From positions 16,046,257 to 16,110,256 of the forward strand of contig OZ316892.1 of the NCBI GenBank assembly GCA_973895155.1: 64,000 nt of DNA. Reading direction: 5' to 3'. This document shows, piece after piece, positions 1 through 61,904 of the stretch. Position numbers and translations under genes: made by a program. Every line of letters starts with the position of its first letter. The first letter of the stretch is position 1. The notes under the pieces are model-generated. The model searched no databases. It was not told where the DNA came from and worked only from the letters and a program-made list of their open reading frames with translations. This DNA is from Marsupella aquatica. Taxonomy: Eukaryota > Plantae > Marchantiophyta.

Positions 1-1646
1 CCTTCATTCACCCTACCTGGGGTTCTGAAGCCACCTGGGAAAATACAATGCCATTCATGCTTGAGAACTACATATAGCAGAATGGATGACGGCAACATTC
101 AATGCTTCACTTCAAGAAAAATTCTTCAAACATACATACCTGTAGCTCTGCCTGTAGATGCCTGTGCAGGGACTGCACTCTGAAATTGTTGCGACCCTGG
201 ACCACCTGTCCAGCCTAGTACAGGGGCCGGATGATGTCACTTTCTAGGTATGTGTGTGCAAACATATGTACTGAAAACTAAGTACAAACTGTAAGAAAAC
301 AACTGAACATTCACCAACATACCTGTCCCCCTTCCGTGCTGCATCTGCATAGGGGCATTAGTGAATACTTGAGTCGATGGTTCGACTGTCCAACCTGCAC
401 ACATACATTTTCTATCATTATACATGTGCAGAGTCCCCCCCACGTGAATGGACTCCAGATATAATGAGTTCTTCCATTGCTGACAAGATCAGACATTACC
501 TGCCCCTCTTCCAGCATTTGTAGGTACTGAATTTTGATATCCCTGCCAATTACCTTCACCACCTTCCCAACCTTGTTCATTCCACGACCCACCACCATCC
601 TCCCAACCTGGTTCAACCCATGTCTGTCCTTGTGGACATTGGAACTGATCATTACTAGCATTTGCCCAATCAGGTTGGGCAGAATCTGCATGCAATGGCA
701 GGTGGACAAAATTTCATGTTGTCTGAATCCAATACATCCCAAACAATGTCAAAAATTGATATGCAGTCTGAAATTCAGGAGTGCCATGCCTTCACAAAGA
801 ACTGGCATATAGATATATACTCACATCCCCATGGTTGAGGTGGACGTCCATACCCACGAGATTGTGGGTTTGGACCTGCTCTGCCTCTACCACGGGCATA
901 ACCTAGAGCTTGCCCCCTGCCATAGTATTGGGCACCAGCCTGGGATCTACCACTACTACCACCTCGCCAACCTTGATCAGAGGTCAGCCCCCCCTGCTGG
1001 TATGGTGCATGCACAGGCTTCGAAGGCAAAACAGAACTGGCAGGACGCTGCATCACATCACCAACTACAATGTCAGGAACTAAACAAGGTACATATGTGT
1101 AGTACTGAACATATGAAACCTCTAAACAAGAGTTTTTAACTCAAAACCTTGTTGGGAAAACTACTTACCTGTTTCTTTTGGGGCTGCTCTGCAATGTATT
1201 CATCTTCATAACCCCCATCCTCATCCATTTCCTCTGGAAAATACTCATCATCTGCATCTTCTTGTCTAGTGTCTGCACCCACCTGTGCAGCATCAATGTC
1301 ATCTCCACATTCTGCCATTGTAGGTACGACCTTCTTGCTCAACCTGTCACTCTGACGCACAGGCCCAGAGATAGTGCTGGTCACCCTTCTTGCGTACTCC
1401 TTTTGTTTCTTTGAAAATACTGTGGCTCTGCGACATTCCAATATGAGAATACAGTCACAATTTCAGTGCCACATTGAACTATTCATGTCACACAAACTCA
1501 GCGGAGGGGTGTAGTTGAGAATCGTTCCCTTACAATTCAGCCACATCCTTTTCCAGATCCAGTTCTGCGATTTTGGCTTTCACGTATGCTCGTTGTTCCA
1601 TAGCTTTCCTTTCATACTCACACATCTCTGTGTCACTCTGTTCCAT
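1..1646 (-). CDS. CACTA second gene (TnpA/ORF2-like), multi-exon, continues off-window
   Basis: First exon MEQSDTEMCEYERKAMEQRAYVKAKIAELDL resembles the N-terminal 'EYER..I..L' motif of CACTA ORF2 proteins. Further low-complexity exons at about 1170-1440, 825-1075 and 500-690 have GT/AG-type borders and lie downstream of the transposase. Confidence 0.5.
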
Positions 1647-1802
1647 CCTACTGGACCACAAAAACATGTCATCTATGATCACCCCGTATAACACAATGCA
1701 ACCACAATCACCAGGCATCCATCCATACATCTGTGTTGCTTCAGAATTACTTTATTACACATCCTTCCCCTCACTAATGTCCATGCAAACAATTCACATT
1801 AC

Positions 1803-4800
1803 TCATGGCACAGGCACACTGTTGGCATCTGCATCTTTGAATTCGCCTCCTTCAGCAAATGCATCTACCCTTGTCACAGGAATGAAGTCCCCGCTATCAT
1901 GAACTACGGGCACTTGGTCTGAACGCCGACGATCAAAGGCACTATGAGAGTGTAAATGAAACTCAAGGTTTGATCCTTCCATCCGACGTTGCCTGGCCTG
2001 TTTATGACACACTACACGCCAACCTGGGGAGTCTTCCACATCCAGGAAGAAAGCTTGCTCCACCTGACTAGGAAACACAAATGGCTCAGACCATTCGGGC
2101 AATTTCCCTCTGAAATTGGCCAGCAAGAAACTGTCGTTGTCTCTCTTCATGGTAGCCCTGTTACCAAGCCAATCCTACCGCACCCATGAACCTTTCATAA
2201 GAATCATAGGACTGGACACCGCCCCATAGTCCAGAGCCCATATGTCAACTAATTCTCCCACATATCCCATCTCCATCCAGGCCCTGTCGTGATTGTGGCT
2301 CTGTTGCTCAAATACAGTGATGAGCCCGCAGTCATTCGTCACCCTGTAGGCACTGTCACCATCCTTCACTCGAAAGTGATTCCCATATGCTCTCATCCGT
2401 TTGTAAGTCTTCACTTTCAGGCTAGGGGCATTAGACAGTAGGTAAACATCTGCATCCATGTCTGGGTGGGTCTCATGATGCTCTCTAATTGCCACTCTGA
2501 TCCACTCCATGAAACCTGGAAAAGTTGTTCCTGCAGTGGGATGGGCCGCCTTCAATGACTCATACTCCCTGAACGAACAATCACACAGCATTAGCTTGGG
2601 TAAACATGAACAGGCTGAAGGAGAAAACCACACGAACACAACATTTAAGCTCATGAACTGGATTATAGCACATGTATGCACTCACTGTATCCAGGGTTCC
2701 ATCACCACAGTGTTGTGCAATACAAAGTCATGTGCCAAGTCTCTCATAGATATGGTCAGGTTCTTTGTGGTTGCAGCCCCTTCCAGTACTTCACCTATCA
2801 CCCCTTCCTCCTCATCAGAATTCCACACCCTGGTCTTCACATGCTCATATTGTGCTATGTATTCGGTCAGAAATCCTAGAGTCTCATCCTTGATGTAACC
2901 TTTAGCCATGCTTGCTTCAGGTTTGTAATATGTTCTCACGTGACCTTTGAGTAGCTTCATGTACCGTTCCAAAGGGTACAACCAACGAGCACTCACAGGT
3001 CCAAATTGGTGTAGCTCTTCCACAACATGGACAAGTAGGTGGGTCATGACATCAAAAAATGTGGGAGGAAAATAAATCTCCAGGTCACACAGCACCTGAG
3101 CGACATATTCTGTCAGTTATGGGAAGTGTGTTTCATCCCAAACCTTCACACAAATACGACGAAACACATCACTGAGTCGCATGATCACAGTACGAACAGG
3201 CTTCTGCAACAGGCCCCTCAGGCATAAAGGCAACACCTGTTGCATCAACATATGGTAGTCATGGCTTTTCATACTACCAAGCTTTCTAGTCATGATATGC
3301 TTCTTGAAAGCACTGCCATAGTTTGAAGGAACCTTCAAAGAACTCAACCTCTGCACAAATAGTTTCCACTCTGTGTCTGTCAGAACATAGGGCGCTTGGT
3401 ACTTCAAGAGCACATCAGCTCTGTGGGCATGTGGCCTCAACCAAAGATGGGGTTTCATTCCCCTCTGTTCAAGATCCAATCTCACTGAACCAGTGTCTTT
3501 CTCTCCACACAAGAATCTGAGTAGACTCTCACAAATATTCTTTTCAATGTGCATAACATCAATGTTATGTTTGCTTGGCTCAAACTCCTGCATCGTTGCA
3601 ATGCAAAAGCGTTAGGAAATGCCTCAAGTTTAGTCTCTCTCTTCGAAATGAATGCACATGCTCTGAACCAAAACATGTATCCCAATTAGCATCAACTCCA
3701 AGAGGCTTACCCTCCAGTACTTGAGCTCCAAGTCCAATATGCTCAGTCTTTTTACACCATATCGCTTTATTGGATCACTCACTCCATCTTCCCTGCCCCC
3801 TCGTTTGATATAGTCATCCCTCAGTGCTCCCCACTGCCTGATCTCCTCTTTGGTCACTCGTGCCGGGGGTCCACGTTGCTCAATCTCATTGCCAAAGTGT
3901 GCAATCAGTGCCTGTCTTTCTCTGTAAGGGTGATCTGCCTTCAGAAAACGACGATGGCCCATGTATATCACTTTCTGCAGGGCTCTGGAGTACTCACTTG
4001 TGACATTGCGCCCACAGATAGTACAAGCACAATATCCTTTTGTTGTTTGGCCTGATATCATCCCATGGGCTGGGTAGTCAGCTATAGTCAGAATGACAAT
4101 GGCTCTAAGGATGAATGGGTTTAACCTCCCAAGCCTCTGTAGGACATCATATGTGAGAACTCCTTCCTCCCAAAGCTTTCTCAATTCCTCCACTAGGGGA
4201 GCCAGAAACACATCTATGTTGGCAGATACAGCACTGTCTGGCCCTAGTATCAGTAGGACCATCAGAACAAAAAATCGCTTTGTAGTCATCCAAGGAGGAA
4301 GGTTATAATTCAAAATAGTTACAGGCCAGCATGAAAATTTGTTGTTCTTGTCTCCAAATGGGTTTACCCCATCCAATGACAGCCCAAGTCTGACATTCCT
4401 CGGCTCAGCAGCAAATTCAGGATACATCTCATCTATGAGTTTCCATTGCCTTGAATCTGCAGCATGTCGTTGTAGCCCATCATCACTTTTCTTGTCAGTT
4501 GCCCAAGTCATCATCTTCGAGATGGCACGGCTTCTGAACATCCGCTGAAGTCTGGGAATGAGTGGAAAATGACGAAGTACCTTGGCGGGAACCATAGACT
4601 TTCCTGAGTTCCGATACCTGTGCTTCCCACACTTAGGGCATGTCAACGATTCTTTATACTCCTTTCTGAAAAGAACATGCCCATCAGGACAGGCATGGAT
4701 CGAATCATAGTTCAATCCAAGATTAGATATGCATCTTTTTGCCTCGTACATGTTCTTGGGCAAAATATTACCATCTGGTAGCACAGTTGTTCGCAAGAAT

Positions 4801-5534
4801 GCCAACAACTCAGAAACCAAAATGTTGGGGACATTGTGGTTGCCGCAAATGTTCAGGAACATGATGACAAATCCCAGTTTAGAACATTTGCTACCGGGGT
4901 ACAAAGACTTCCTGCCTTCCTGTATTTGCAGGGGAGAGCCAAACATCCCATCATGCCCAGGGGTTTCCTGCCCTATCTCAAACTCATCAAGAGGCTCTTC
5001 GACAGGGGGCACACTTGCATCTGCAACCGTATCCTCTTTGTTGTCCAGCCCATCATGAAATGCATCCAAGTCTTGGAAGATGTCTCTCACCATCTCTTCC
5101 ACATGAATTCCTTCGTCACGTGGTGCTGCCTGAGCACCATCCCGTTGGAGAGCTGACAACCCACAGAGACCAGCTACAACATTTTCAAATGCACCAGGCA
5201 GAACCTCACTTGCCCGTCTTGCAGCATTGGCAGCATCAAATTCTAACCTCCACTCCTCGTCGGAAGAATCTTCCTCTACAGGATCATTCCAAACTCGATG
5301 TCGTGGATCTCTTCCATGAACGGCGATATGCCGCCAAACCTCATTCAGACCCCTGGTACGGGATCCTTGGCAGATTGCACAAGGACATCTCATCCTACTG
5401 GCTCCTGAAAGTCTGGTTCGTAACCTTTCACGCTGCCAAAGCTTATTATCATGGCGTGATATCCTTGTGGGATGATGCAAAGGCAGTGCCTGTGCCCTGG
5501 GCTGGGTTTGGGGAGGGTGGTGACCAGGGTGCAT
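1803..5534 (-). pseudogene. CACTA TnpD transposase (Transposase_21 with DUF4218/DUF4216-like regions), two premature stops
   Basis: Motifs IHACPDGHVLFR, LRHFPLIPRLQRMF, RNVRLGLSLDGVNPFG, IADYPAHG, IDVMHIEKNICES, MKSHDYH, FFDVMTHLLVH, WLYPLERYMKLLK, EPFVFPSQVEQAFF. Introns at about 3588-3710 and 2569-2685. In-frame stops at 3117-3119 (TAA) and 2175-2177 (TAG). Confidence 0.92.
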
Positions 5535-6066
5535 TGTAACAGGCTGGAAGCTCTGCAATCATGGACAGCAGTGAATAGGGATGCCTAATAGTGGTATTTG
5601 TGTTCCATATATCCCTGACTGTATGTGCCAAAAGAGTTAACATAACGTGTAATAAATTCTCACAAACCCTAAACCACCCCAAAAGAAAAAAACAGGTTTG
5701 CGAGTAGTGTACCTATTGTCAAGTGAATGACACAAAATTCCTCAATGTTTGAGGGTGTCACCACCTCCACAACTGTCCTCAAATGTACCGCCTCTGCATG
5801 TACACCCATGACCATATCAGAGTCCAATCATGTATAGTCATAGGCATAGGTGTGAGAGCGGTATCAGATATCTCACCGCCGAGATTTGAGCCCACCCAGT
5901 ACGTTTACAGTGACACCCCCAGGCAGCAGGAAACAACAATCCGCCAACAGTAAAATAAGCCCAACTGCCACCAACCATAACAAGGTACATTAGTTCAAAG
6001 ATCACATTTATTTCAATGATCTGATTTATACAAAAAAACTTGTGTCCAAACTGATGCTACTACTCC

Positions 6067-6945
6067 TCACTCTGATTCAGAATCGCTAATGACCCATTCC
6101 TCACTTGTTGTCTCATAGTCCTCTCTGTAAGGATCCTGACCCTTCCGTGGCCAGGCCTCAAAAAGATTATAGTCCATTGGGTTTTGACACTTCCCAGCTG
6201 CTACTGATTCCACAAGCCAAGCATATGAAACCACAAACACATTATGGGACATGACATAAAAGCGAATGTCTCCCTTCCCAAACTTGCGGCAGGCTTTGGG
6301 ATATGACTTAGTAATGACATGAGTGGTGTCCTCTGTTATATTCTCCTCAACTGTCCCACCTAGGTCAAGCACCGTGGACTTGTACACTTTGCACTTAACC
6401 TCTCCAATTCCCGCCTCCACAAATACCATGCTCAGCCCTTTCAGAATGGGGGTTGGTTGCTTCGTCTCCTCAGCCAACATACTCTTTAGCCTTCTAGAGC
6501 TCTGTCCTTTGTTGAGTACAGGTCCATATTGGACATCAGCAAGCCGTGCCTTTGCTTCCCAGACTTCTTGTTCAGCCCAAGCTGATGCAGTAGCTTCTTC
6601 ATCCTCCCACAGCTCATATTGCTCAGTATCCTGTACAATCTGATGTGCCATGGAATCTGTGATCCAAGAGGCCTCAACTACTTTTAGGCCTTGCTTAGTA
6701 ATTGCAGAATTCATGTAGGACCATGACCACTTCTTTATCACTGATAGCCATGTCCCTGCAACAACATGTGTAGTCTCTGGAGTGATGTCCTGAACTACAG
6801 TGCCATGGAGCTCAGAGAATCGTTTCTGTACAATTGGCCAATGCACTTTGGTCAACCCATGCTGGCCATGGACCAAAATGGCTCTGACCCCTGTAAACAC
6901 TGCTGGGTGGTCACACTTTCTACGTTTCCCAGGCTCCATGTACAC
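6067..6945 (-). CDS. Tandem BRCT-domain protein (DNA polymerase lambda-like BRCT) inside the CACTA element
   Basis: Intact 292-aa ORF with two repeats of the BRCT pattern: FTGV..LHGTVVQDITPETTHVV..VVEASWITDS and LKGL..LGGTVEENITEDTTHVI..VVSYAWLVESV. The second resembles the plant Pol lambda N-terminal BRCT. Basic N-terminus PGKRRK. Confidence 0.8.
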   Translation of the reverse strand: MYMEPGKRRKCDHPAVFTGVRAILVHGQHGLTKVHWPIVQKRFSELHGTVVQDITPETTHVVAGTWLSVIKKWSWSYMNSAITKQGLKVVEASWITDSMAHQIVQDTEQYELWEDEEATASAWAEQEVWEAKARLADVQYGPVLNKGQSSRRLKSMLAEETKQPTPILKGLSMVFVEAGIGEVKCKVYKSTVLDLGGTVEENITEDTTHVITKSYPKACRKFGKGDIRFYVMSHNVFVVSYAWLVESVAAGKCQNPMDYNLFEAWPRKGQDPYREDYETTSEEWVISDSESE

Positions 6946-7531
6946 ACACCCTACGTGATGACAGTGAATTTTGGAAGAATGGGTTCACCTGACAATACAA
7001 GGACAACAAAATTCCTGCTTTTTGAGTTGATCTGGCCCACTGGTGCTCAGGTCCGATTTTGATAGGTACAAGGGATATGTGAACAATATGTACTAGGCAC
7101 CTGCACGGATGCAGGACATTGTTTGAATATATACTACAAAATCCATATCGAAGGTGAAATGAAGTGCAACCAACTTGTCATGGCACATACATATTTTGTT
7201 GTAAAGGAGGATACGTTCAATGACAAACTTATAGGGCAATTTGATTAATCGCATGCCTAATAATTTATATGCTTACAACTTAGAAGTCCTGTTTTAATTT
7301 AGCAGTTTGATGAAAGTGTTTATGAAAATGACCACTCAGCCTAAATACTTCCAAGAAGGCTTGTAAGGATAAGTTTTTATAGGCATGTACCCAGCCACTG
7401 ACGCCAGAGCACAAGATAAGTGCTGCCTATATAAACTCGCCTACCCAACTCCTTTTCAAAATTGGAATCTCTGCAATCTCAAAAAATAGTACATCCACAT
7501 CAGGTGCACTGTGCATGTACAATGTTCAGCT

Positions 7532-8212
7532 TCACAGCCAAGATATGTGATCTCTCACAGGAGTGCGCGAGGTAGGATCAATGGCATGGCGATGACAATA
7601 AAATATCCATCGATCAACACCATGTGCAGAGTGATCATAGATTTCTCTATCACAAGCATAACCCTCTGCTTGACGATCTTTCAGGCAATGATAGTGCCAC
7701 ATGGTGGGACACCTAGCACAGTGGACTATGTCAGTCCAGTACTCATGATCATGCTCACCACATGCCTTGCACCTATGAAGTGGGCAAGCTGTGGCATGAG
7801 CAGGCAAACACTCAAAATAGAAAAATCTCACACAAAAATGGTCTGGACATTTCCTAACATTTGTTGCAGCATCAACAGAGCCCTCATAGGACCCCAACTT
7901 CCCACATTGTGCACACTTAGCCTGCTTCTCCAAACAATCAGTGCACATCCAGTCTCCCTGGTGTGTTGACGGGAGGCCCACCCTTGGACAGTTGTTTTCT
8001 GCAGCAAGGTCAGACTCCGGGTTGAGGTGGAAATGCCTCATGCAAGGGCCCTCACAAATGACCAGGCCCCCACCATCATCACAAATGGCACAACAATGAG
8101 CTGCCTTCTGGAAAATCTGACTTGCAGAGAAGTTAGTAGCATCTGCCCCAAGTACACCTGTGTTTCTCACCTCTGTCACACGCTTTTTGGCTTGAATTTT
8201 AGGTCGTGCCAT
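7532..8212 (-). CDS. Stand-alone EDM2-type composite PHD-finger protein inside the CACTA element
   Basis: Intact 226-aa ORF: CAICDDGGGLVICEGPCMRHFH...WMCTDC...CAQCGKLGS...CPLHRCKAC...CARCPTMWHYHCL...FYCHRHAID...TPVRDH. This is collinear with the EDM2 PHD module (CAICDNGGE..CEG.C.RSFH...CPLHKC..C...CRRCP..YH..CL...YC..H.ID....TPVRDH). Confidence 0.85.
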   Translation of the reverse strand: MARPKIQAKKRVTEVRNTGVLGADATNFSASQIFQKAAHCCAICDDGGGLVICEGPCMRHFHLNPESDLAAENNCPRVGLPSTHQGDWMCTDCLEKQAKCAQCGKLGSYEGSVDAATNVRKCPDHFCVRFFYFECLPAHATACPLHRCKACGEHDHEYWTDIVHCARCPTMWHYHCLKDRQAEGYACDREIYDHSAHGVDRWIFYCHRHAIDPTSRTPVRDHISWL

Positions 8213-8223
8213 GCCTGCGCATG

Positions 8224-8367
8224 AGATAGACTCTACAGTTTAGCAGACTGCACAGAAAGTAATATATATTTAGCATTTAAGGTACAAAGGCATTTAGATA
8301 GACTCTACAATTTAGCAGACTGCACAGAAAGTAAAATATATTTAGCATTTAAGGTACAAAGGCATTT
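8224..8367. repeat. 72-bp direct tandem duplication (2 copies)
   Basis: agatagactctaca...ggtacaaaggcattt occurs at 8224-8295 and 8296-8367 with two substitutions. Confidence 0.9.
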
Positions 8368-8984
8368 GCTACTGCAATGAATTGGAATGGCCACACAAGG
8401 ATGCAGAGCAGACATACTTTTGGTATGTTGAGCCCACACACAAACCTGATCCCCTAATACAATTGCTCCACCAACACCTCAATTTTAATTGTGGCTATGA
8501 TTCACCAAAGGAGATCTGCAACAACATTTCATGCATTTGAATCACATACAATAGTCGTGACATGTAAAACGCGCATTCTTCGAAGAGGATTGGTATGAAG
8601 CAGTGTCATAAGGGTTGAAATTTATACATCCTAAATAGGCTATGATAGTGGCTGAGACAAATAAGTGATGCATAAATCACATTTTACAGGTTATCACATG
8701 GCCCATTAATTCATTGAACGTTGCAATGTTCACCAGGTTAAAGCAGTCATGAAAGCAGTCTTTCAATAGAGACTTTTATGCGAGTTTGCTAGCCTCTTAA
8801 ATTAGGATATTTTGCCTAGTGCAGGCATAATAGGATATAAGTTATGTACTGTTGACCCTAAACCCTGGACCCAAAATTGCTCATACATCAAAATTTTAAG
8901 TAAATATCCTCTGTGTTGAAGTCAAAGTGTTAAGCTATAGGTCAATGGTATCTGGTCTGTGCATGCGGTGTGACAAGTGGTCCT

Positions 8985-9435
8985 CTAGAGCATGTGATCC
9001 AAACATGTGTAGACACCAAAGTCACCGGTGGTGGGGTCTGGGAGGGCAGGACAAGTGACATCACCAGGCACACTGCAGGATGGCGAGTGATTCCAGATGA
9101 TACATTGTGCTCTGTGCAAAAATCAGCATCCAAGAGAACGGTCATCCAATTTTGGGCCAGAAGCCCTACAGGCAGGACAATCATATTGGCAACTGTGTAC
9201 ACACCCTTGGCACCTAATTTGTGACGGGTCATGTACAAGAGACACAAATACCAAGGATGTCGGGAATCGTACTGAAGCAGGTAGAGGCCGGCTGTAGTTG
9301 TTCCTGGAAACAACAGGGTACTCAAAGTACCATGCAGACTAGGCTGGAAGGATCCCAAGTCTGACATACTCAAGGCGCAACATGTCTGCCTTGCGTGCAA
9401 GTCGCACATGTTCAGCGTTGCGGGTCCTCACCATA
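8985..9435 (-). pseudogene. Decayed Cys/His-rich (zinc-finger-like) ORF inside the CACTA element
   Basis: Manual translation of a frame not in the ORF track: ...QIRCQGCVHSCQYDCPACRASG...GC*FLHRAQC..WNHSPSCS...TC...FGVYTCLDH, with internal TAG and TGA stops. Confidence 0.4.
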
Positions 9436-10442
9436 AGTGTTGCTTTCGTTGTGATGTCCTCTGTTCACATCCTTTGATGAGCAAGGTGAGCAGGAGGTCG
9501 ACTTGCCTCGCCAATAGCAACCACCTAAACTAATCAGTTCTCACTCATTGTCTTGGTTCCAACTACAGGTCATAGTATACACATAGCATGAAACGTGCAT
9601 AGTACATATTTGATTCTGAGTTTATGAGTTTCCTAAGACAAAGAGCTTGGTGATAAACCCATATTCTCGACGGACATGTATATCAATCGTATTAAAATCC
9701 TGTTTTTTCATCCAGAAAGACCGAAAGTCTCACCTTGCAGGTTGCAGCAGAGAGAAAATTCACTGGTTGTCGTGTTGTGCAAGTGAACCTCCACTGATGC
9801 CCCCGGTGTAGCCCCTCAGATGCAGGTGACACTTACCAACTCCCAAGTTGCCTGGTCTAACAGAAAATGCTTATATCTTCAGAACTTTATAGAGCAAGTA
9901 CATGATCACATACTTCTGGATCTATTCATATTTGGAACTCTTGCCAACTACAACTCCCATTATGCACAAGCTCACATCAACAGAGAAAGATACAGAATGC
10001 ATACTTACTAGGCTCTAAGCACCTTCACTACCTTGTTGAACCCAGTCCTGAAGTCTTTTCAGCGTGTTTGTTGTGTTGTCTCCTTTGGCACCCAACACCT
10101 TAGTCCTTGATGTAACAGAATGCAATTTTACAAGTTAGATGCTTTGGAACCTTCTATGGTCTTAGCTGAATTGATGTCATCGTAAGTGGTGAAAGACAAG
10201 GAAGACGAAAGCTGGTTGAAGAGCTGTAGACAACACACTAGCATGAAGTGCTTCAACCAATCCACTGCCAAACGGAACTCTTACACAGTCACATTCTTTC
10301 AGTAAACAGAAACTCAGTCAAACTTCATAATCAAAGTACAGACTCTGAAGGACCAAAGGAGGATGTTGTGAGTTTCTCTGTTGTTTAATGTGTTACCCTT
10401 CTAGTTTCGAAGTTAGCAAATGCTGAATAATGTGTCTACCAG

Positions 10443-10784
10443 ATCTTCGAAAAGAAGCCCACCACAATTAAGAACTTCGGTATCTGGGTGAGGTATCAGA
10501 GTCGTACAGGTTATCCCAACATGTACAAGAAATATCGTGATACCACATTGAACATCGCTGTAGAGCAGATGTATGATGAGATGGCTTCTTGTCGTAGAGT
10601 TTGGTTCCCTTGCATCCAGATCATCAAGACTACGACAGTCCCTGTCTCTCTGTGCAAGCGAGAAAGTACCAAGCAGTTCCATGATTCAAAGATCAAGTTC
10701 CCCTTGACGTACCGCAAGATTCAACCTCCATCGCGAAAGCTAAAGACGACTTACAAGGCCACCAAGCCCAACACATTTGTTTGA
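10443..10784 (+). pseudogene. RPL18A: Captured last exon of 60S ribosomal protein L18a (eL20)
   Basis: After the acceptor ctaccag: [49 protein letters not shown]...CIQIIKT...[33 protein letters not shown]. No upstream exons seen; several conserved residues are substituted (e.g. GYHN to GYPN). Confidence 0.88.
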
Positions 10785-12479
10785 GTAGTGCGGGTGCAGG
10801 TTCCCAATTTTGAAACAATTTGGCTCATTTTATGTCCCGAGGGACTCCAGGAGTTTATGTATTGAGTTTCTAGGTCAGGATGCTTAATATAAGGAAATTC
10901 AATTTTCACTTCGTTCCCAGCTTCTACTAATTGAATATACACGAGATGGAAGCAAGAAGATAAGCCACAATCTAGCATCTTAGCCAAACACATTCGTCCC
11001 GACAAAGCAAAACTACAATCACACAGTGCGAGTTGTGTCTGCACCGGCACCCCCAGTGAGACTGATCAGCATTTGGACTGCATCATTGTCTAGAGCTAGC
11101 AGTGGAAGGTGCAGTGGAGATAGCATGGGGACAGGGAAGGAAATGCAGGTTCCTTAAGCATAAATTTCCAAAAATGGAACAACAGGAAATGAAGAATAGG
11201 CACTGAAGTGGTCAACTAGACAAACGTTGTAACAAGGCAGCAAGCATTGGATTAAGAAGAAGCAAGGTTTCATCAGCAGAAGCAAGGTTTCATCAACAAT
11301 GGCATTGTGAGACAAACCACTCCTTACAAATTTCTACAGACATCCTCCCCACTTGCAGCTTCTCGGCCAGGCTGGATTTCTTGTAAGAGAGGTTTCTTGT
11401 AAGAAAGATTTCATGTTTGGTGAGGAAAGATAAAAAAGCAACTGATCAATGCCTTCTTGTCATCTAGAAGAGCTGGATGCAGCCCTGTCTCACATTTAAT
11501 GTTAAACTGAATGAAAGACATTATGCGCATGCACAAAAGAAAGACATGAATATAATTAAGGTAGGTTTTAAGGAGCGGAGTCAGCAGTCAGACTTAGAAA
11601 GTTCAAATTGAAGCGCCATTAGTTTGGCGTGGTCAAGAGTAAATAAATGTTGGTCAGGGATACTCACCTCTTTTGAATGTATTACTGACTCAGCTAAGCC
11701 CAGCTAGACAGAAGTCACTCAGACCCACAAAAAAGTGAAGATCCACCTCCAAGCCGGAGCTCTATCACTTCAGTAGAGCAGCTTCTGGACGGAACCAACT
11801 CTAATCAGCCCCACAGAACACAAATGTTAAGGTTCCAAGTCAGAGCTCACTTCAGCCGAGGTGGACATCGCAGCTAGACCATTCAGTATAGGCAGTATGG
11901 AGCCTGAGACTACGCTCATTGTTCAGAATTGAGGTGATGAAAGTGAGTTGGCATCAGTGGATACAATGAGAGGGGAAAAAATTCTGACCAAATCGCACCT
12001 CTATAATCAGAGAGGTTCTATTTCCAGGGAACTCATTCATTGACCAGAGTAATATGGCCCACATTTAATTAGACTATGATAGACTCTTCCTCTGCAGACT
12101 CAAACTCGAGGAACCCCCACGGATGCCAGCATATACACGAGCTAGAAGCAAGAAGACAAGTCGCAATCTAGCATCTTGGCCAAACACATTCTTCCTGGCG
12201 ATAGTAACTGCAAGCAAGGGGGAGACAGGGAGAACAAGGAGAATAGGGAGGCAACTCACAATGGAGCTAGGTAGCTCATGATCAAGCAACTTGCAATTGC
12301 AGCAACAGTAGTCTTAGTAGCAAGCGATTGAGCTCCAGGAAATGACAAAGCCGCAGCTGAGTCCTCAACTGACAAAATGTTCGCCACTCGACCCTCCTTC
12401 CAACTGCAACCGCCAGATAGTAGGAATAAGATAGAGAGGTTGCAGCCTTCTCAGTGATCCAATAGCACCTCTCTTACCA

Positions 12480-12700
12480 CCTCCGCTCTTAGCACATCCG
12501 CTCGCACCCTCCGCTCGCACCTCCGCTCTCAGCACCTCCTTTGGCACCTGAGCCGCTCTCAGCACCTCCGCTCGCACCTCCGCTTGCACCACCTCCTTTG
12601 GCACCTGAGCCGCTCTCAGCACCTCCGCTCGCACCTCCGCTCGCACCACCTCCTTTGGCACCTGAGCCGCTCTCAGCACCTCTGCTCGCACCGCCGCCCA
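12480..12700. repeat. GC-rich 57-bp minisatellite (about 3 copies) built from gcacctccgctc 12-mers
   Basis: ttggcacctgagccgctctcagcacc recurs at 12541, 12598 and 12655. Confidence 0.9.
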
Positions 12701-15464
12701 AACTGAAGCTACGTAGCAATCCTCAGCAGTGTGTGACAGAAGCACTCCACTCCAGCTCCACTCCGCTCGAGCTCCACTCCAGCTGCTCTCCGCTCGTAGC
12801 TCCTCGGCCAGACCGGCGGCCAGAGCAGCTCCCAAATTGCAGCTCCTGCCCGCCCACAGCTCCTCCCAGTCCTAGAGCTCGTCGTCCACTGCAGCTCACC
12901 TCTCCACTCCGCAAGCCGGTCGCCCTCTCAGCTTGAATGCTCTAGAGCTTTGAAGGTAAACCTTCAAGCTCCAAGCGCAAAACTCCCCTACGCGAAGGAA
13001 CTGCCCCGATCGCGAAGCACACTCCCCACTTTGTGAGACCACGCACAATGTGACGACCTTCAGGCACGACGAATGTCCCCGTAATGGACAAGTGAGTTTT
13101 TCTGAAACAAAACCCTCCGAGTTCCCACGCACATTGAACTGAACTTTGCACTTTGCTGGCGTGTTTAAACCCTAAACAAAACCCGCGCACCCTAAACTCG
13201 TGTCCAAAGGCACACTCACGCACAAAGCATACCTTAACACTTAGTGACACTTAGTGAACTAAACCCAATGAGCCTCGACCACTTTGCGTTGACATGAGCC
13301 GTTGATACACATGTTAGTACCCTAAAGCAAATTGGACACGACACTTTGTGAGCAAAGATTAAATGAACGCAACTGTAACCTCTTAGAACGCAACTGTAAA
13401 TTAACCCTTACACATGCCACTTAGGGAGGGTGGACAAAGAATGGGGGCCAGACACTACTTTAGCCCTGAATTGAAAATGATATCACCCCAATATTCTTGT
13501 CAAAGTTGCCCATGAACTCTAAGGAATCCATTGAGCAGCATAAGACTTACTATTATAGAGGCAAGTACTCCCATGCACGTTTAATTAGGCTAGCTAGGAT
13601 AACTAGCTACAATGCTCTTGACATGAAGACATTTAACTAGTTTTGCAACCCTAAACCCCCATTCCTTCTATGTGCACCTAGTGCTCCCGACTCCGCAAGT
13701 TGCAAGTCAAGGGTTGTAAATGGAACATTCCGTGATGTCTAGAGTGCATGTAATCCTTCTTGCACTCTATTTCAGAATGCCGTAATGGAGAGTAGCTTAT
13801 TCAACTTACATATGACTGCCCTACTAGTGTTACAATTGCTACTTTATCAGAAGTTGTAGGAATGACTTTCACAAATATCCCCCAAAAATCAGTTGATAAA
13901 ATGTAACAACAATGACTCCCCTAAACTTGGAGTCATGTATTTTTGAAAGTCTCCCTAAAGTCACAAAGCATAGGGTCTCAAAAGGGGACGTTTTCTTCTA
14001 GTGGCTCCACCTCAGTAGCACGTTGCTGATCGATGACAATCCCCGAGGGAGATGCTCTTCTGGCGAGCAAGCTCATCAACCCTTGACTCTATTTCTCTAT
14101 GGTCTCCAATGTCATCTTGAAATCTCTCCATTGGGGGTCCGGTATTCCGCCCCTCCAATTTGTTCATCTTAAGATGATCCCGTGTCCTTTGAGAATCCCA
14201 TCTCGAGAATCCGTCCCTCTCAACACCTGAAGGTTTAAGTCCATACCAACTTTGCGCATTACCTGTACCTTCAGTCGTGCCTTCTCTTTGCAAATGGGAA
14301 TGTCCAAAGTTGGATTTAGCTCTGACATCTTGACTTGGTGCACCATGCACTAAAGCAGCTCCCTAGCCAAGTGTATCAGCAACATGTCCCTACAAGCGCA
14401 AACCACCTCCGGGTCGATCACTGGAATAAGACCAGTGGTTTGCTCCACCCTCCGCATCCGTCCGTTCATTACCTGAATACGCATGCCCCGGGCCCATGCC
14501 ACGGCCCTCCATGCGGCCGGAGTTCCGATAGCGTGACATTCGTTTGCTCACCCTCCCAAGTTGAAGCCAAGCCTAGTAACCCAACCCAAAAGCAAGCAAA
14601 ATGGCTGTCTCGCTTGGCAGTCCCACAATTTTGCTTTACCCAAGACTTATTCAAGCGCATAAGAGATAAAAAAGGTGAGAGCTCACCCAATCCAGAGCAC
14701 TTCCAGGTTGATCGCTCCATGCACCCCAAATTCTCCTCCGTAAGAAGTTGTTTTCTCTCCTTCTAATCACCGCTTACACCACGGGCTATAATCAAGTTCT
14801 TCTCCTAATGCACTTTCTACTCCAGATTTAACTTCCTTATGAAAACCAAGAATCCCGTGCAAAGTTTACCAAGGAAACAAGGGTCGTTCTTCTTCCTCGT
14901 CCCTCTTTCCCTGCGTTCCCAACCCTAACATGTTCCAGGTTTTCTTCCTTCTCCGAGCCACACTGAATTTGCTTTCACTTCTTACCACAATAGTAACACT
15001 CCCTCAATGAGGAGTAATTATCTTAGCATCCTATAACCTTTAATCTATCCTACCTCCTCCCGCCCTCCAAATCCAAGTACAGCCAGCACACACTTTCAGC
15101 TCCGCCAATTCATTGTATCAGCTTAGCAGTCAAATTGTCACAAAACTTAATTCCTCCATATTTAACCTTCCATTGATAATCCAAACTAAGAGATTATCTT
15201 AACCAGATTGATTTCCTCTATCTTTTGAGCGTTCTCTTTTGTACGAGCACACACCAAGACCAATGGCAAAACCATCGGTTACCGCCTTGCTGAAAATTGA
15301 TTTCACTTCATCCCACACACATTCCTTGGATGAACATGGGGGTCCACGGAGTAATTGAAGCTACAAAAAAACATTAAAGGTGACTAAGTTCAAAATGACA
15401 TTCAAAGATAGGAAGCCTACTTTGGATATTCATATATGTTGTGATGCTCTATGAAAACTAGGGA

Positions 15465-16075
15465 TACTAGGCTCATTGGAAAGCACATTTAAAGGTGCCC
15501 CCCTTATGATACCAGGATTGGCAATTGTCACCCAATGGAGGGATCAAAGATCACCGAGTGCAAAAAACCCTATAAGCAACTAACTTTGCAAGTTTTATTT
15601 GCATTGTTGCATGCAAGGGAAAATTGGTGATGTTGGACTCAATGAAAAGCACATCTCATGGCACTTCCAATGCTACCAAAATAGACAATTGTATTTCAGT
15701 AGTAAAGGAGAAGTCAAAAGTCAAACGTCATAAATTACAAAAAGTCTACAAACATTCAACAAAAGGCAACTGAGTTTGATGCTCAACAGAAATTGGCAAT
15801 GTTGAGCTTGTTGGGAAGCACATCTCAAGGCGCTTCAAATAGTACCAGGATTGACAATTATCCAACCTTAATCAGGGAGAGGTCAAAGGTTGATCCTGCT
15901 GATGGTAGAAAATAACATTCAAAAGAAGGTATCCAGGGAAAGCAATGGTTGATCCAAATTGTGGAAAATCTACAAGTTTTCAAGAAAAGACAAATGATTG
16001 TGTGTGCAATGATGCTCAACAAAATTTGAAGATCTTGGGCTCATTGGAAAGCACATCGCAAGACTCTTCTAATGG
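15465..16075. repeat. Diverged tandem repeat (about 165-230 bp spacing), probably a transposon remnant
   Basis: A motif like ggctcattggaaagcacat...accaggattg(g/a)caatt recurs at about 15470, 15635, 15805 and 16038. Confidence 0.6.
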
Positions 16076-16813
16076 GAGTGTTCATAAAATGAGAGATAAC
16101 GGGTATGATAGCCACGACAGAAAACAGAAAACAGAAAACCTGTTACCAGGGGTTTATTTTCTGTTAACAGGGAAATTGTACCTGTTACCAATAAGCTTGT
16201 CCCTGTTACCAGTTTTGCCTGAACCATAACGTGCATATCCACCACTCTAAGGTGCATATCCACCACTCTAATGGCATAATTTTTCGGGGGGCAATAAAGT
16301 TTAAAACAAACAATTATTTTGTGCCATCCGATGGATGAAGTGTACTATCAATCCTCCATTGACACAACAATTTATTGTAGAAGATAAAAAACATGGTATT
16401 AGGAGTGTGCCTAAAGAAACATTCATGCAAATCAATCTATTTTCATCGGCAAATAGTGACCCTTAGAGTGGGACCCACCATAGCACATGTCAATCGTGGA
16501 GTCCAAATGAACCCAATCTAAAGGAGTTGATTAAATGGACCTTGTAACGTCACAAACAAATGACAAATCACATCCTCGAGGCTTTGAAGACAGTAGACAA
16601 TTTAATCAACTTACACATTTTAAATAAAACAAGAGGTCATTCTTCCACAATGCACGTACATAATGAAGCAATGAATATCCGGTTTCCTAGAACCAGCGCC
16701 TGGCGCTAACCAACAAAGTCTCAATAAAACAACTAAAATATCTGTTGGAAAAAGACAAAATAGGGAATAACCGTTATATTGAACGACGACCTATTGGGCA
16801 GTTTCGATCTCTC

Positions 16814-19800
16814 TCATAAGCCATTCAAGTTCTGCCTCTCCAGCACAAGCCTGACTTCGCCTAAAGTCAAAATAGATTGGCTGCAAAGAGTCGACTCCTC
16901 AATCTCAAGTTTGAAAACATTTATGTACACCCAGTATAGATGTTTGCAAGGCATGTACGACTTGCCACGCGAATGTCGGAGGAAGAAGTCTTCACAAGAG
17001 CAAGCGGGGAAGATACAGATTTGGACGAAGTATGTGCTTGGTGATCGATGGTTCTCATGGGTTCGAATTCGAAATTGCTTTCCAAAAGCATTTCCGGTCT
17101 GAACATTCCATTCCCCATCCAAACTCATCACTTCTTGTCGTGCAGACTCCATTCGCTTCGTGTGACCCACAGTGAGATTAGACTGAGGCCTTGAGTTCCT
17201 CCCATTTCGACTACCAAGTCGGAGATTCGGCTCCAAAAACCTTATTGTTTCTGGGAACATGTTAACATTTATCCTGAGGTCAAAAGCAGATGGCGCAGAT
17301 TGACTCAATCCTGTTGTTCACGCTAATACAAGTCCTTGCTCTTCCAGGAATGTAATTTCAGAAGGAGACAGGCTTGTACCCTTCAGAACAGGCAAAATGT
17401 CAGGAAAAGGAGGAAGCTTCTGAACACCACGACGCGGATGACTCTTGTAACACGCTTGGTTCGGGAAAAACCAAATCATTTCGGAGATGGGTTCGCCCCT
17501 GAAGAGACGATGGCCCTTCATGACAATTCTGACAACACCTTCAGACGAATGGAAGCCAACCTTCTTGATACGATTTCGACACTCATCGCGATCCAAACTC
17601 CCATTCAGTGTACCATTGCATTGCGGACCTGCTCCATACTTCGATGTCCGTCGCAACTGCCACTGCCCCGGAGGGACATCCTTCTCTAGCACAATCGTGC
17701 GTGGAAGTTGATTCTGAAGTGTTGCTGGGGCACTGAGCGGAGGTTTTGAGGATCTTGTTGTTCGGGTTGTTTGAGGAGTATAGTCCAGTGAATCAGTATC
17801 ACTCTCTGATGTGACCATACCTGAGAGATTCACCACCTTTGTGACAGGATGATCAGAACTTGAGGGAATAGAAGAAAAGTCAATTCTGTTCAGGTTCTTC
17901 CTTTTCAAACCACGAGTATTTGGTGTGGTTATTAGAACGGTGTCATGCCGATGGGAATCTTGTGGAGAGACAGTCCCAGTTGCATGTCCCTTCCTCTTCA
18001 TTGACTTTGTCATTATATCTCCATTCAGGGGAGTACTTCTTTCCAAATCGAATTCTGCTGCGTTAGATAGAAGCATATTAGTCGCTTCTTCAAACAATCT
18101 TGGCAAACCTGCTTGATCGGCGGAACGGAACGCCAATTCCCATATAGTTGGCCCCTTCCCCCGGTTCAAGCCTTTACGGTATGCACTGTATCCGGCAACT
18201 TGAGACAGAGCACGGTTTTGGTCAACTTCGCAAGCTTCATAAAGACCGACCTTTTTCTTTGTAGCCGAGGCTTTCATGGACGCATGCCTTGATTTTGACC
18301 CTGTACAGTTGGGGATCAAGGCACCTTCCTCAGCGCTTTTGCTCTGCCATACGAAAATGTCAACCATAAGTAGTATTATATTACCAGCGCCCGGCACTGG
18401 CAACATAAATATGTAGAACAGGCCTGAAATACAATTTCAATGTTTAATACTGAATTCTAACTACATATTGGCTTCAATTTCTTGTACTACTTGTTTTGAC
18501 GTGTATGGAGAAAATAACCAGCGCCTGGCGCTAATATGAAGTTGATGAACATTACAGTCTAGATAGATGGATGCCTTACCACTCGAATAAAATTGCCCCA
18601 TTGGCGCCAGCGAACAACCCACCAAGATATCCAGCTTTGCAGCATCTTCAGCTTTCCGGGGACACAGTTTCCTGATTGCCACCACACAACAATCTCTCGG
18701 GACACCCGGTATGCTGCCACAAATGATGGAGCATTTCTCAATTTCTCCCAAAGTCTCCGATGCTCCGATTGACATTCTTCCAGTACTCCTTCCTTGGAAT
18801 GACGATGAAAAGATTGATAAAAGTGAAATGCATCAGAGCGCTCCCTCTCCGGGTCCGGGTGTCCACCAAAAAAAACATTTCGCACTGCATTCCATCCAGC
18901 TTGTGCATTGTTGGCCATAAATCCTTGGATGACAACCTCCTGAAGTTCATTTTCTTTGCAAACCTCAATCATCACTCTCCATGCCTTTTCGAAGGACTCA
19001 GTGTCTTCACCTTTCAACTCGCATGTGAAAATTGTACACAGTGCACGGAAATTGTGGTTGTAGACGTGTGCGCTGAAAGTAAACCAATCCGTGGTGACAC
19101 GCTGCATCACATCAAAACTTACCCAGGCTTCTTCGAGTCTTCCACCCGGTTGCATCTGCCTCAAAAGATCCACACCGGAACCGTGACCTTTCACGGTCAT
19201 TTTAAAGATGTGAGGCCTATCGTTCTGACATCCCTGACCTGGAAGCAAATACCTCTGGAGAAACAACACATGAATCCTCCTCTGCATTTGCGAGAGAAAA
19301 TCTAATTCACCCCGACCTTTTTGGTCTATCCTAACGCTCCGACAAAGAGATGCAAACTTCTGCGGAGTGGAAAGGATCATCAGAGACTTCCATATTTCAG
19401 TTTCTTCGATATCGACCATGTCGTCAACATGTTCGCAGAGAGATTTCACTAAGGACCCTGTAGCAGAATTCAAGATCCCTGCCGGTTTTGACAGAGGATT
19501 GGCTTCATGTTTTTTTTTAATTAGATCCTCAGCTATCTTCTCCGCACTCCTACAGAAGGTTTTTCTACCTGGATGGTTGTGCTCACCTATATGAATTGCC
19601 AGGCGGGATATATGACTGCATGTTTCCGCATCAAGTAATACTTGGGGGTACATGTAAAACAAACGGGCAGGGCAGTACTTCACACAAAAAGGAATCTGTT
19701 CGCAGTAATGACAAACAACACCTCCCTCTTCGATGAAAGATCCCACAGCATACTGACCACTGAGCTTTGGAGTACCCTGCCATGCCTTAGCATTTGCCTT

Positions 19801-20501
19801 CTTCTTCCTTTGGAAATAGTCGCAGGACTTGTTCCTGCATTCAATGAATCCTGTACAAGTAACCTTCCCAAACTGCCAAAGGTTTTTAGGATGAACAGTT
19901 GCAGTTGTTGGAAATATGCGTGTCCAAATGTAACAATCTTTGGCACGATCCATGTCCCTAAGCCTAGAGCCTTTAGAGAGCATCTTATCAATGGGCGGCA
20001 ACTCAACACGACGTTACCATTGTACTTAGTTGGCAGACAGGACACTTGTTCATGCCTGAAATGACCCACTGATATGAACCGTGACAACTCACTATGACCA
20101 GTTGATTTGAGTAACGTATCCATCGCACTGCGCCGGTACACGACCTCCAACTGCTTAGAGCTTCCTGGAGTCTCAGCTTTCACGACAACAGGGAGTGGGC
20201 TTTTCTTCTTCGACGGTGGACTTAGAGTACGATCTCCATCCTCACTTGAAGAAATCTCAACCACATCACATGGAACCGGCGGGAAACTGGACAGTCCTGC
20301 ATGCTATCTTAAACAAACCGAGTACGAGATCCCTACGTAGAGATGCCAAAACCGTTCACCATCATCGACATTGAACGTTGCAGCATCCTCGATATCATCA
20401 ATGGATTCGAGCTCTCGAACAATGGCCTCAATGTCATTCATCTTCAAATCAAATCTCCCGCAGAGATACCTCTCCCGGACCTACTTGTACGTATCTTCCA
20501 T
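16814..20501 (-). pseudogene. MULE-type transposase with GCM-like DNA-binding domain, DDE core and SWIM finger; disrupted
   Basis: GCM-like CTGFIECRNKSC...CHYC...CPARLF...HIGEHNHP. DDE region SFDVMQRV, GFMANNAQ (D expected at the first N), DAFH, SKSRHASM (E expected at K). SWIM PACSCEDF...MPCKHLYWV. Intron about 18344-18579, frameshift near 20005, in-frame stop at 17318-17320 and further stops near the 5' end. Confidence 0.8.
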
Positions 20502-21526
20502 GGGGACGGGGATAGTCACAATATCTTCAGAACCGAATCGAGAAAGAACGATAGACCGAGACATGGTGAACAAAAACAAAAACCGAGGGCTATAGCGTTT
20601 GAAAGAAGAAAAGTTCATGGTATTGTTCAGCTTATATCTGTCGAACCTGGGAATTTGACGTTAACCGATCCGTTTGTATACGACATAAAACATTGACGAT
20701 GGAGGATCCGTTGGCACCATAAATGATTTTTGTCGTTTTTTCCTCGAGAAGTCCGGATGTCAGACACGAACATATTGCTAAAAAGATCACCAACCTTACT
20801 TAAACAGACCATAAGATATGACAAGGTATTGTCAAATTTTAGTAGCGCCTGGCGCTAACTAAAATACGCCACCAAAAATGTGTCTGAAATCTCGACATTC
20901 CAAACTAGCGCCCGACGCTAGTATAGAATAAATTCCCTTAAAATGAACATTATGACCACATACCAGGTGGTAATTGGGAATAAATGGTGCCTTCAAAGGA
21001 TGGTTTTGATTGATTATGGATGATAAATGAACATTTATACTAGCGCCGGGCGCTAGTATTACATTTGAGAAATATTTCTCCGTAAATGATGTACTGAAGG
21101 ATACTTTAATAAAATATGGGGGTGGAAAGGCCGAAATTTATGTCAGCTCCTTCAAAAAAGACCTCTAAATTTCTTCCAGTTTATACTAGCGCCGGGCGCT
21201 ATTATAAGCATACTCTAAATTGTTCACCTTGATGGTCATCATTAATGCTAGCGCCCGGCGCTAGTATTGATATGATGTTAGGAAATGTCTTTAACGGTAA
21301 CATTCAACGGTAACTTATGACTTCCGTGTGTGTTACGCATCTTCTACCGTTTGATTTTGGTAATTAAACCTTCCGTATACAGACGTTGGAAACCGCCAAA
21401 CATCAGAGCTAATGGCTTTCCTCTAGGTTATGTCATCCTCCCGCTAGAATATATTACACGTTCAGAGATGATTATAGTTCCATAATTTCATTGTACGATA
21501 GTTCGTACGCTTCTAGAAGGAAGACG

Positions 21527-24500: not shown

Positions 24501-25202
24501 CTACACAATGGGGAGTACGATCCCATGTCGCAAGTCATTGCTGCCTGTCAGGAGTCAAGGAAATTTTAGTGTATATGCTCGCATAATGTTGTGATGTCTG
24601 ACCCGATGTATGCGGCAAAGACAGACCGAGAGATGTTTACCCTCAGGCTCGACATATTTGGCCGAATTAATGGGAAATGTAAAATTTCCAAAGACCCCAA
24701 ATTTCGGCCGCTGTCCATCAGTGAGGACCCTTCGGTTACCAATTTGATCGGACTCTCTTCGCTCAAATCAGATCCATTCCCGCAAATGGAGTTTGCTGGA
24801 AATGCTCGTCTGTCTGTGGGTTTTATGCAATCTGTTATAGAGCTTGTCACACGGCCTCGTGATATTTTTATGGATTGGACTGCTGGGGCTGGAGGCTCTT
24901 ACATTGCTGGCGACTTCTCTGGACGATTTGTACTCGGGATAGAACACCGGAAAGAATTTATTGAAACCGCTTCAAAGGTTTTCATGGATTTGTTGTCTCC
25001 CAAAGAGATTGCAGTGTTACCTCCACCTGTTCCTACTGCCGACAGAAAAAAGAGAGATAAGCTTCGGTCGGTTCTCAATTTTGATTCTGATGATGAATCG
25101 AGTGAAGGTGAAGAGGAACAAGGTACAAGAAACTTTGAGGAGGAAAAGGGAGAGCATCGTGCAGCTGCAGATGAAACCGATAGTGATGACTCTTCCGAGT
25201 AA
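21527..25202 (+). pseudogene. ParB/Srx-like domain fused to a beta-class (N4C/N6A) DNA methyltransferase-like domain; 3 exons, 4 in-frame stops
   Basis: Exons 21527-22278, 22403-23736 and 23926-25202 join in phase to 1121 codons. ParB-like VRTL...IEKLKDSF..MGY...VFDGNHRLYSW. MTase-like VDAGFIYLPTG (degenerate motif IV), FLSDDGFLVILH, and FMQSVIELVTRPRDIFMDWTAGAGGSYIAGDFSGRFVLGIEHRKEF (motifs X-I-II). Stops at 23154, 23472, 24084 and 24567; no frameshift. Confidence 0.72.
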
Positions 25203-59967: not shown

Positions 59968-60176
59968 TGAGCCACACTCTGTCTGTGGCACTTGCAGATC
60001 ATTTTTCCACCCGTTCGAGAGCTTTCTCTTTTGCCAAGCTAGGCACAAAGAAATCATTCCAGGGTTTTGTCAACTCCTGAGGTCTGTAATCACTCCTGAG
60101 GTCTGTAATTGTAGAGTTCACTGAAGGTGAAAGACGTTCATGAATAGAGGGAGGTCGACTTGTACAAGGACAGGTC

Positions 60177-61055: not shown

Positions 61056-61118
61056 CCTCTACTGCTCCCAATTTCTATTTGTCGTCTAAGATTACATTCT
61101 AACAACAGTTTCAGCTTT

Positions 61119-61892: not shown

Positions 61893-61904
61893 TGAATCGG
61901 GACC

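Follow-up and report, generated by a model that had tools for sequence, protein, structure and literature searches.

Organisation of a CACTA element in the window

The window, a stretch of 64,000 nucleotides from Marsupella aquatica (contig OZ316892.1), carries a CACTA-type DNA transposon. Read on the minus strand, its features follow in the order CACTA terminus at 14003, GC-rich array, ribosomal protein L18a fragment in opposite orientation, cysteine-rich ORF, PHD ORF, BRCT ORF and TnpD transposase. The terminus is a candidate 5′ terminal inverted repeat (13991..14003, minus strand; CACTAGAAGAAAA) which coincides with the edge of a repeat, and it is the only element end mapped within the 64-kb window, the other one lying before base 1. 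TnpD (1803..5534, minus strand) is present in pieces which encode the domains Transpos_assoc, Transposase_21, DUF4218 and DUF4216 in this order, the four-domain set given for CACTA transposases in the available text of PMC8978399. The piece at 3630..5534 matched Transposase_21 of Pfam with an E-value of 4.6e-70, and the other pieces are located downstream. With the four-domain transposase and a 5′ CACTA terminus at the repeat edge, the element belongs to the CACTA/EnSpm transposons. A premature in-frame stop at 3117-3119 distinguishes the window copy from autonomous CACTA copies, which have an uninterrupted TnpD. Where the second gene of such elements is expected, short minus-strand frames of high read depth were found (1..1750) which run off the window; none of these frames matched Pfam, and it is their position that suggests a TnpA-like gene.

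The gene of main interest is a stand-alone triple-PHD ORF of the EDM2/NSD type (7532..8212, minus strand). As the initial annotation had stated, it is intact and intronless, with an ATG start and 226 aa without internal stop, and it is co-oriented with the transposase, since both PHD ORF and TnpD lie on the minus strand. A 72-bp tandem duplication (8224..8367, 97% alike) is found just upstream of the ATG. The second accessory ORF, also intact, codes for a tandem-BRCT protein of 290 aa (6067..6939, minus strand), to which two stand-alone proteins of 294-295 aa are related with 60% and 54% identity. Its best matches among solved structures were DNA-repair BRCT repeats such as those of BRCA1 (E 0.003-0.009), and the protein may function in DNA repair where the element excises or inserts. 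The BRCT ORF and the stops in between rule out that the PHD ORF is an exon fused to TnpD. The candidate third accessory ORF (8985..9434, minus strand, 149 codons) is cysteine-rich, contains two internal stops and showed high depth in sequencing runs X1 and X2; searches of Pfam and the PDB gave no match that would assign it to a family, and an overlapping frame at 8945-9427 matched nothing in Pfam or the Atlas. Its start, M-V-R-T-R, is H3-like except for Arg instead of Lys at position 4.

The 5′ part of the element contains the GC-rich tandem array (12464..12697) with periods of 12, 15, 27 and 57 bp. The L18a fragment (10431..10781, plus strand) is intronless and represents ordinary cargo. A 65-bp direct repeat (89%) occurs at 10935-10999 and 12131-12195. 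Some element copies do not contain the region 9653-11889, as contigs in both X1 and X2 skip it.

Public contigs from 4 of the 11 listed sequencing runs were placed on positions 1-16000. Summed contig depth, which does not equal copy number, was 34,000-155,000 in X1 from base 1 to 10146 and 1,900-21,000 from 10146 to the terminus at 14003. At the terminus, a contig of depth 3887 (13690-13917) was followed by one of depth 130 (13977-14179), and contigs beyond 14003 had depths of 80-167 in X1 and X2. Summed depths of the PHD bins (48,512-88,529 in X1; 241,190-348,508 in X2) were similar to those of the TnpD bins. The step at 14003 and the unbroken high depth through all three genes indicate that PHD, BRCT and TnpD travel in one repeated unit, and the 5′ end at 14003 probably belongs to a smaller subfamily. 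The location of the PHD gene inside a CACTA element, as originally proposed, is borne out by this high depth, which continues from TnpD through the ORF out to the terminus; it also speaks strongly against a host gene beside the element.

The composite PHD module and its stand-alone relatives

The predicted protein begins with MARPKIQAKKR and ends with TPVRDHISWL. Its composite PHD module had been described as whole, and the Pfam families PHD-1st_NSD, PHD_NSD and PHDvar_NSD were indeed matched in this order, each slightly below the curated cut-off. The conserved end is located as described, but the stop follows four residues beyond TPVRDH rather than right after it. PHD unit 1 (C41-C93; 7934..8092, minus strand) is of the C4HC3 type, keeps the acidic residue 54 and Trp88, and has a histidine at position 60. 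Unit 2 (C100-H146; 7775..7915, minus strand) contains a 7-residue linker and Tyr132 (bases 7817-7819). Unit 3 (C148-H209; 7586..7771, minus strand) shows the C4HC2H variant typical of EDM2/NSD1, described as the signature of the last PHD unit of these proteins in the available text of PMC3776765. The claim that most zinc ligands are kept holds for 23 of 24, the exception being residue 132, which is Tyr in the window copy, Cys in 10 of 10 stand-alone relatives and His in 132 of 136 host-like modules. Since the entire depth covering base 7818, in X1 as well as in X2, carried the Cys codon letter, the change to Tyr is private to the window copy. Each of the 24 ligand columns is kept in 9 or 10 of the 10 stand-alone relatives.

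A profile built from the window protein together with the five relatives closest to it retrieved 595 proteins at E ≤ 0.001, the short relatives first, followed by EDM2 of Marchantia and seed plants. EDM2-family proteins were retrieved at E-values down to 6e-34, with Arabidopsis EDM2 as a member of cluster P0049, and an Atlas search with P0001 confirmed plant PHD_NSD clusters (0.93, 195 shared features). The best solved relatives of the module in a profile search of the PDB were NSD2 and NSD3 (E 1e-26), and AIRE PHD1 was the closest single-domain solved match of PHD1; none of the PDB searches with the module returned an entry for EDM2. AlphaFold modelling with a 50-row alignment resulted in a mean pLDDT of 86.5 and a pTM of 0.81, with residues 26-226 folded confidently; with only 6 alignment rows, the pLDDT was 47.7. 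A Foldseek search returned partial matches only, to PZP/PHD-H3 complexes (E 4e-5, TM about 0.2), and a fold search gave a partial match to NSD2 PHDvC5HCH (Z 5.1, rmsd 2.8, 75 aligned).

Five stand-alone relatives of 217-245 aa are 82, 75, 52, 36 and 37% identical to the window protein and agree with it in the start and in the DHISW end. The careful phylogeny, computed for 46 modules without a mixture model, united the 11 stand-alone full modules in one clade (support 100/100, stem 0.98) separate from the host EDM2/NSD modules. A quick tree of 145 rows, from which 9 near-duplicate rows had been dropped, agreed with this result (95 SH-aLRT). The clade was not nested with support in any host EDM2 clade of the 46-module tree, and the AU test gave p-values of 0.54 for a position with bryophyte EDM2-like proteins and 0.32 for one with land-plant EDM2. 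The identification as EDM2-type is correct for the kind of composite PHD, and the stand-alone modules constitute a clade of their own. This clade is marked by Gln35 (10 of 10), the His-to-Cys exchange at ligand 132 and the linker of 7 residues as compared to a host median of 27 and minimum of 10. The acidic stretch before PHD1, a region with a median charge of -5 over 131 host proteins, is absent from the window protein.

The PHD ORF shares no more than 37% identity with any of 136 host-like modules, the host's own EDM2 not being among them, and 31% with the module of Arabidopsis EDM2. No close longer or fused form was found among 2,865 candidates (best 31%), where only host EDM2/NSD proteins appeared, at 24-34%; as evidence this is weak. 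A search for the genomic context of the relatives in metagenome contigs yielded host-type EDM2 sequences only (11 loci at 26-46%, two of which were read), and no loci were found in viral or prokaryote contigs. The distant stand-alone relatives are presumably transposon-borne as well.

Among the 40 variants listed out of 77, 38 lie in the PHD ORF, 20 of them at third positions and 18 synonymous (21% expected). From these 38 of 77 variant rows we calculated a pN/pS of 0.30 (p 2.6e-4), a rough value which derives mostly from one contig of an air-metagenome run, with each variant scored alone and pieces at least 80% alike. A second contig placement on 7300-8440 included three more distant runs. 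In X7, from a different organism, contigs with summed depth up to 12,186 covered the PHD coding part, mostly less than 95% alike, and the loose end of one of these contigs, read by hand, stays in register through the W-x-C-x-x-C motif. The spacers on either side of the ORF were scarcely covered in X7 or not at all, an observation given no weight here. As judged from these sequence comparisons, the PHD ORF family is old and under purifying selection. The initial suggestion of a selected accessory gene rather than passive cargo is supported by the separate clade, the relatives at 36-82% identity, the low pN/pS and the high depth to 14003.

EDM2 is described in the available text of PMC7529245 as containing an RFD, an ELP methyltransferase-like domain and acidic and proline-rich regions. 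The PHD ORF resembles EDM2 (P0163, EDM2_ARATH), EDM2-like plant proteins and the PHD1-3 cassette of NSD1-3 in the three-unit PHD arrangement, the C4HC2H last unit and the TPxRDH end. It differs from EDM2 in its length of 226 instead of about 1300 aa, in the separate clade, the intronless gene and the location inside a transposon, in the missing RFD, ELP methyltransferase-like, acidic and proline-rich parts (PF12047 was matched by EDM2, and the PHD ORF gave no match of this kind), and in the ligand exchange and short linker of the stand-alone family. Its domain composition is not that expected of an EDM2 orthologue. Short PHD-only derivatives of EDM2 from grasses (P0030 and P0048 of Eleusine, P0072 of Setaria) likewise consist of the EDM2 module without the methyltransferase part, and three of the five members of their clade start with M-A-R-x-K. 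However, these forms have a separate origin among seed-plant EDM2, and neither the His ligand nor the long linker has been lost in them; they also retain a C-terminal tail. Their clade comprises P0030, P0037, P0048, P0072 and P0092 (320-386 aa); a further instance is locus L003 (667-1665).

The H3-tail-like N-terminus

Residues 1-10 (8183..8212, minus strand) form an H3-tail-like N-terminus. After removal of Met the sequence reads A1 R2 P3 K4 I5 Q6 A7 K8 K9, and its register is that of ARTKQTARK, the H3 peptide quoted in PMC8166343. The initial annotation had classified this start as NLS-like; it is basic indeed, but an H3-tail-like motif is the more specific description. H3 mimics are defined in the available text of PMC8166343 by the start iM-Z-R-X-K, which occurs in 48 of 20,996 human proteins. 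M-A-R-P-K of the PHD ORF conforms to this iM-Z1-R2-X3-K4 definition of H3 N-terminal mimicry proteins (H3TMs) and, in addition, a lysine is placed in the K9 register. The H3TMs and the influenza NS1 and G9a mimics, as far as covered by the same text, are host or viral and do not possess a PHD pocket of their own, whereas here a putative mimic is transposon-encoded and joined to a PHD module.

For the profile comparison, 27 proteins from the stand-alone side were reduced to 22 by dropping four EDM2 fragments without PHD and one insect NSD; three of the 22 begin inside the module, leaving 19 with an N-terminus. The mimic rule applies at the first Met in 9 of these 19 clade members and in a tenth member at its second Met. 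Lys is found at position 9 in six of the ten fitting proteins and at position 8 or 9 in nine of them. They are mutually 34-82% identical, and the register persists even among proteins 34-45% alike; because the clade members are kin, these counts measure conservation and not independent events. The nine members which miss the rule comprise three with M-A-R but without K4, five with S-R-[KP]-K a few residues inside, and one with neither.

Among host-like proteins the rule applies to 3 of 156, all from the one clade of short PHD-only grass forms, and their mimic start is likely an independent second origin. Of 154 other proteins, 14 begin with M-A-R, most of them from non-seed plants, and EDM2-like proteins of Chlorella, Calypogeia, Marchantia and Selaginella show the M-A-R start without K4. 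As non-seed-plant host proteins often start in this way, A1-R2 may simply be inherited. EDM2-like proteins starting with M-A-R are P0012, P0014, P0015, P0017, P0019, P0023, P0074, P0088 and P0112; those looked up are algal, liverwort or lycophyte, and most seed-plant EDM2 differ. In the non-seed-plant proteins, the M-A-R start may be a ligand of the protein's own PHD module.

In the AlphaFold model, residues 4-10 have pLDDT values above 50 with a beta-bridge at 6-7, and residues 11-25 are below 50. Co-folding of the tail (residues 2-31) with the module (residues 33-226) gave a score of 0.34 compared to 0.01 for the best control, graded as weak support; the runs agreed in at least 59% of contacts and the partner pLDDT was at least 42. 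In the calibration, which did not cover peptides, 5 of 78 solved pairs passed at scores up to 0.60, as did 4 of 180 mismatches, these being all the mismatches that passed; the run itself was made without the 50-row alignment. As solved PHD-H3 complexes exist, the score may reflect likeness to these; furthermore, the stretch 25-31 adjoins residue 33 onward in the intact protein, and its packing could produce the score without ARPK. A profile of 8 selected N-termini retrieved no H3 chain from the PDB at E-values up to 10. The Met is conserved across the stand-alone clade. An AG dinucleotide two bases before the ATG means that the ORF could be spliced to an upstream exon, in which case the tail might not be a free N-terminus.

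Possible functions of the PHD protein

Position 60 of PHD1, which we take to be the site of the cage tryptophan, is His (8 of 10) or Gln among the stand-alone relatives. Leu50 and Trp/Phe88 are retained in PHD1, and residue 54 is acidic (Asp in 10 of 10). According to the available texts of PMC8166343 and PMC5415848, the usual target of PHD fingers is the tip of the H3 tail, with K4 either trimethylated and bound via a Trp-containing cage or unmethylated. With His or Gln at the cage position and Leu50, the acidic residue 54 and Trp/Phe88 retained, PHD1 would read K4-unmethylated tails, that is, the silent state. As the acidic stretch before PHD1 is missing, H3 binding may be weaker or changed.

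We tentatively favour the interpretation, at slightly less than even chances, that a multicopy CACTA family has conserved the ORF as an accessory gene, the product of which acts as a reader-plus-decoy anti-silencing factor with an H3-like tail. The gene lies in the repeated unit between 5′ terminus and TnpD, in an old family under purifying selection. Following the rules for PHD fingers, PHD1 would bind the K4-unmethylated H3 N-terminus and thereby hold the protein at silenced copies. Away from chromatin, the protein's own A-R-x-K tail could, after Met removal, occupy the PHD1 pocket, as the co-folding weakly suggests; upon displacement by H3, the tail would become accessible to H3 readers and K4/K9 writers of the host. 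Since it has no catalytic domain, the protein is restricted to competition or bridging. By masking genuine tails and exposing imitations, it would weaken the silencing loop, so that TnpD/TnpA could be expressed. One can speculate further that the protein is a self-gated histone mimic, in which the H3-like tail locks its own PHD reader until K4/K9 methyltransferases modify the tail or H3 displaces it. The element would then sense the silencing enzymes and decoy them, and the A-R start of algal, bryophyte and lycophyte EDM2-like proteins would be an ancestral gate overlooked in EDM2 biology; we consider this extended version doubtful.

Integration guided by a chromodomain or PHD occurs in retroelements, which provides a precedent for a role in targeting, the third function originally proposed. 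The PHD module would recognise a nucleosome state and direct the transpososome, possibly jointly with the BRCT protein, either to donor ends or to sites of insertion within tolerated chromatin, and the tail would be a self-inhibiting gate or an import signal. Such a tethering function agrees with a PHD protein devoid of an effector domain and with the adjoining tandem-BRCT ORF, whose resemblance to DNA-repair BRCT (BRCA1) suggests a cut-and-repair cassette; we regard it as unlikely.

Arabidopsis EDM2 is reported to bind H3K9me2 and to promote full-length transcripts together with ASI1 and AIPP1 (PMC9910501, PMC7529245, PMC9292364), and the background on EDM2 given in the initial annotation was correct as far as the available texts of these papers and of PMC3632883 extend. 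By analogy, the PHD protein might be an aid to RNA processing which binds H3K9-methylated element chromatin and recruits or titrates ASI1-AIPP1, so that transcripts run through to TnpD without an early end. The clear EDM2-type module with its C4HC2H last unit and the several co-oriented ORFs ahead of TnpD fit this proposal, but the protein does not possess the other EDM2 domains, is only 31% identical to the Arabidopsis module, and shows a ligand swap and the loss of about 20 linker residues in PHD2, so that we consider this function improbable.

We judge equally improbable that the protein is a plain reader with a basic import signal, that is, a selected chromatin-binding factor whose likeness to H3 is incidental (an inherited M-A-R plus an NLS) or whose ATG is not the real start. 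This explanation would account for the 9 of 19 members which miss the mimic rule, the possible splice acceptor just before the ATG, the occurrence of M-A-R in other, mostly non-seed-plant proteins and the failure of the N-terminal profile to match H3. However, an NLS needs no fixed distance from Met, yet the R2/K4 register is kept at 34-45% identity while residues 11-30 are unalignable. 

Finally, a captured EDM2 fragment useless to the element, or an adjoining host gene, is largely refuted and very improbable: Pack-CACTA capture is common according to the available text of PMC13317346, the element also carries the L18a retro-fragment, and the window copy has a lost ligand, a dead TnpD and a second TIR and TSD outside the window, but against this stand the old clade of its own, the unbroken high depth from TnpD through the ORF, the lack of a close longer or fused form among the 2,865 candidates and, as arguments against a recent capture in particular, the identity of at most 37% to the 136 host-like modules and the pN/pS of 0.30.

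The favoured reader-plus-decoy factor can be compared with VANC of the VANDAL MuDR elements, which is also a separate accessory gene on a plant DNA transposon, is proposed to counter silencing and was likely co-opted from the host chromatin regulator MAIN, according to the available texts of PMC5735166, PMC10398659 and PMC13547354. VANC is reported there to bind DNA motifs and to cause hypomethylation, whereas the PHD ORF encodes a predicted histone-reader fold on a CACTA element and gave no Pfam match to a VANC-like DNA-binding domain. Long-kept cassettes of chromatin-related accessory genes are also described, in the texts available, for red-algal Plavaka elements of the EnSpm/CACTA superfamily (PAG1-3; bioRxiv 10.1101/2025.02.11.637652) and for fungal EnSpm elements (TET/JBP; PMC12730594). 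The products of these genes are writers or erasers (SET, N6-adenine methylase, 2OG oxygenase), in contrast to the predicted reader with a histone-like tail beside BRCT in our element. A Peptidase_C48 accessory gene on CACTA is mentioned in the available text of PMC8978399.

Chromatin-related accessory genes on DNA transposons are already known, namely VANC, PAG1-3, TET/JBP and SET; what would be new here is a reader from the host EDM2 family, long kept and equipped with a histone-like tail. To our knowledge, few counter-silencing genes on transposons have been found in plants (VANC and TnpA), and SET/TET-type enzymes are known from algae, oomycetes and fungi. The literature searched, which contained few subscription papers or Repbase reports, did not describe any plant DNA transposon with an EDM2-type reader or an H3 mimic, and the word PHD is absent from the available texts on transposon accessory genes (PMC13547354, bioRxiv 10.1101/2025.02.11.637652, PMC12730594, PMC8978399, PMC13317346). 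If true, the anti-silencing function would represent a new counter-silencing strategy based on histone-level mimicry and competition instead of DNA binding or enzymatic erasure. In addition, structural studies could use the PHD ORF as a minimal EDM2 module that occurs naturally, and the ORF hints that the N-terminus of EDM2 proteins in non-seed plants may be self-inhibiting.

Several other features were found in the window. Exon-like frames at about 41371-44206 (plus strand) presumably resemble a host gene of the VPS18 type, for which no supporting Pfam match was found in this region. Cysteine/histidine-rich, transposase-like ORFs at 16814-20123 (minus strand) and 28635-28961 (plus strand) are related to each other and gave no convincing Pfam match; we assume that a motif at 16814-17260 is SWIM-like. 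A run of broken ORFs at 21527-25202 (plus strand), one of which has a weak match to N6_N4_Mtase (E 0.0096), is reminiscent of the ParB and adenine-methylase genes that accompany Plavaka elements, and a D-G-N-H-R motif in another of these ORFs is presumably that of a ParB-like domain. LINE ORFs for reverse transcriptase and endonuclease, the 3′ half of which is duplicated, lie at 57633-63548 (plus strand) around a 181-bp tandem repeat of 4.9 copies at 60176-61056.
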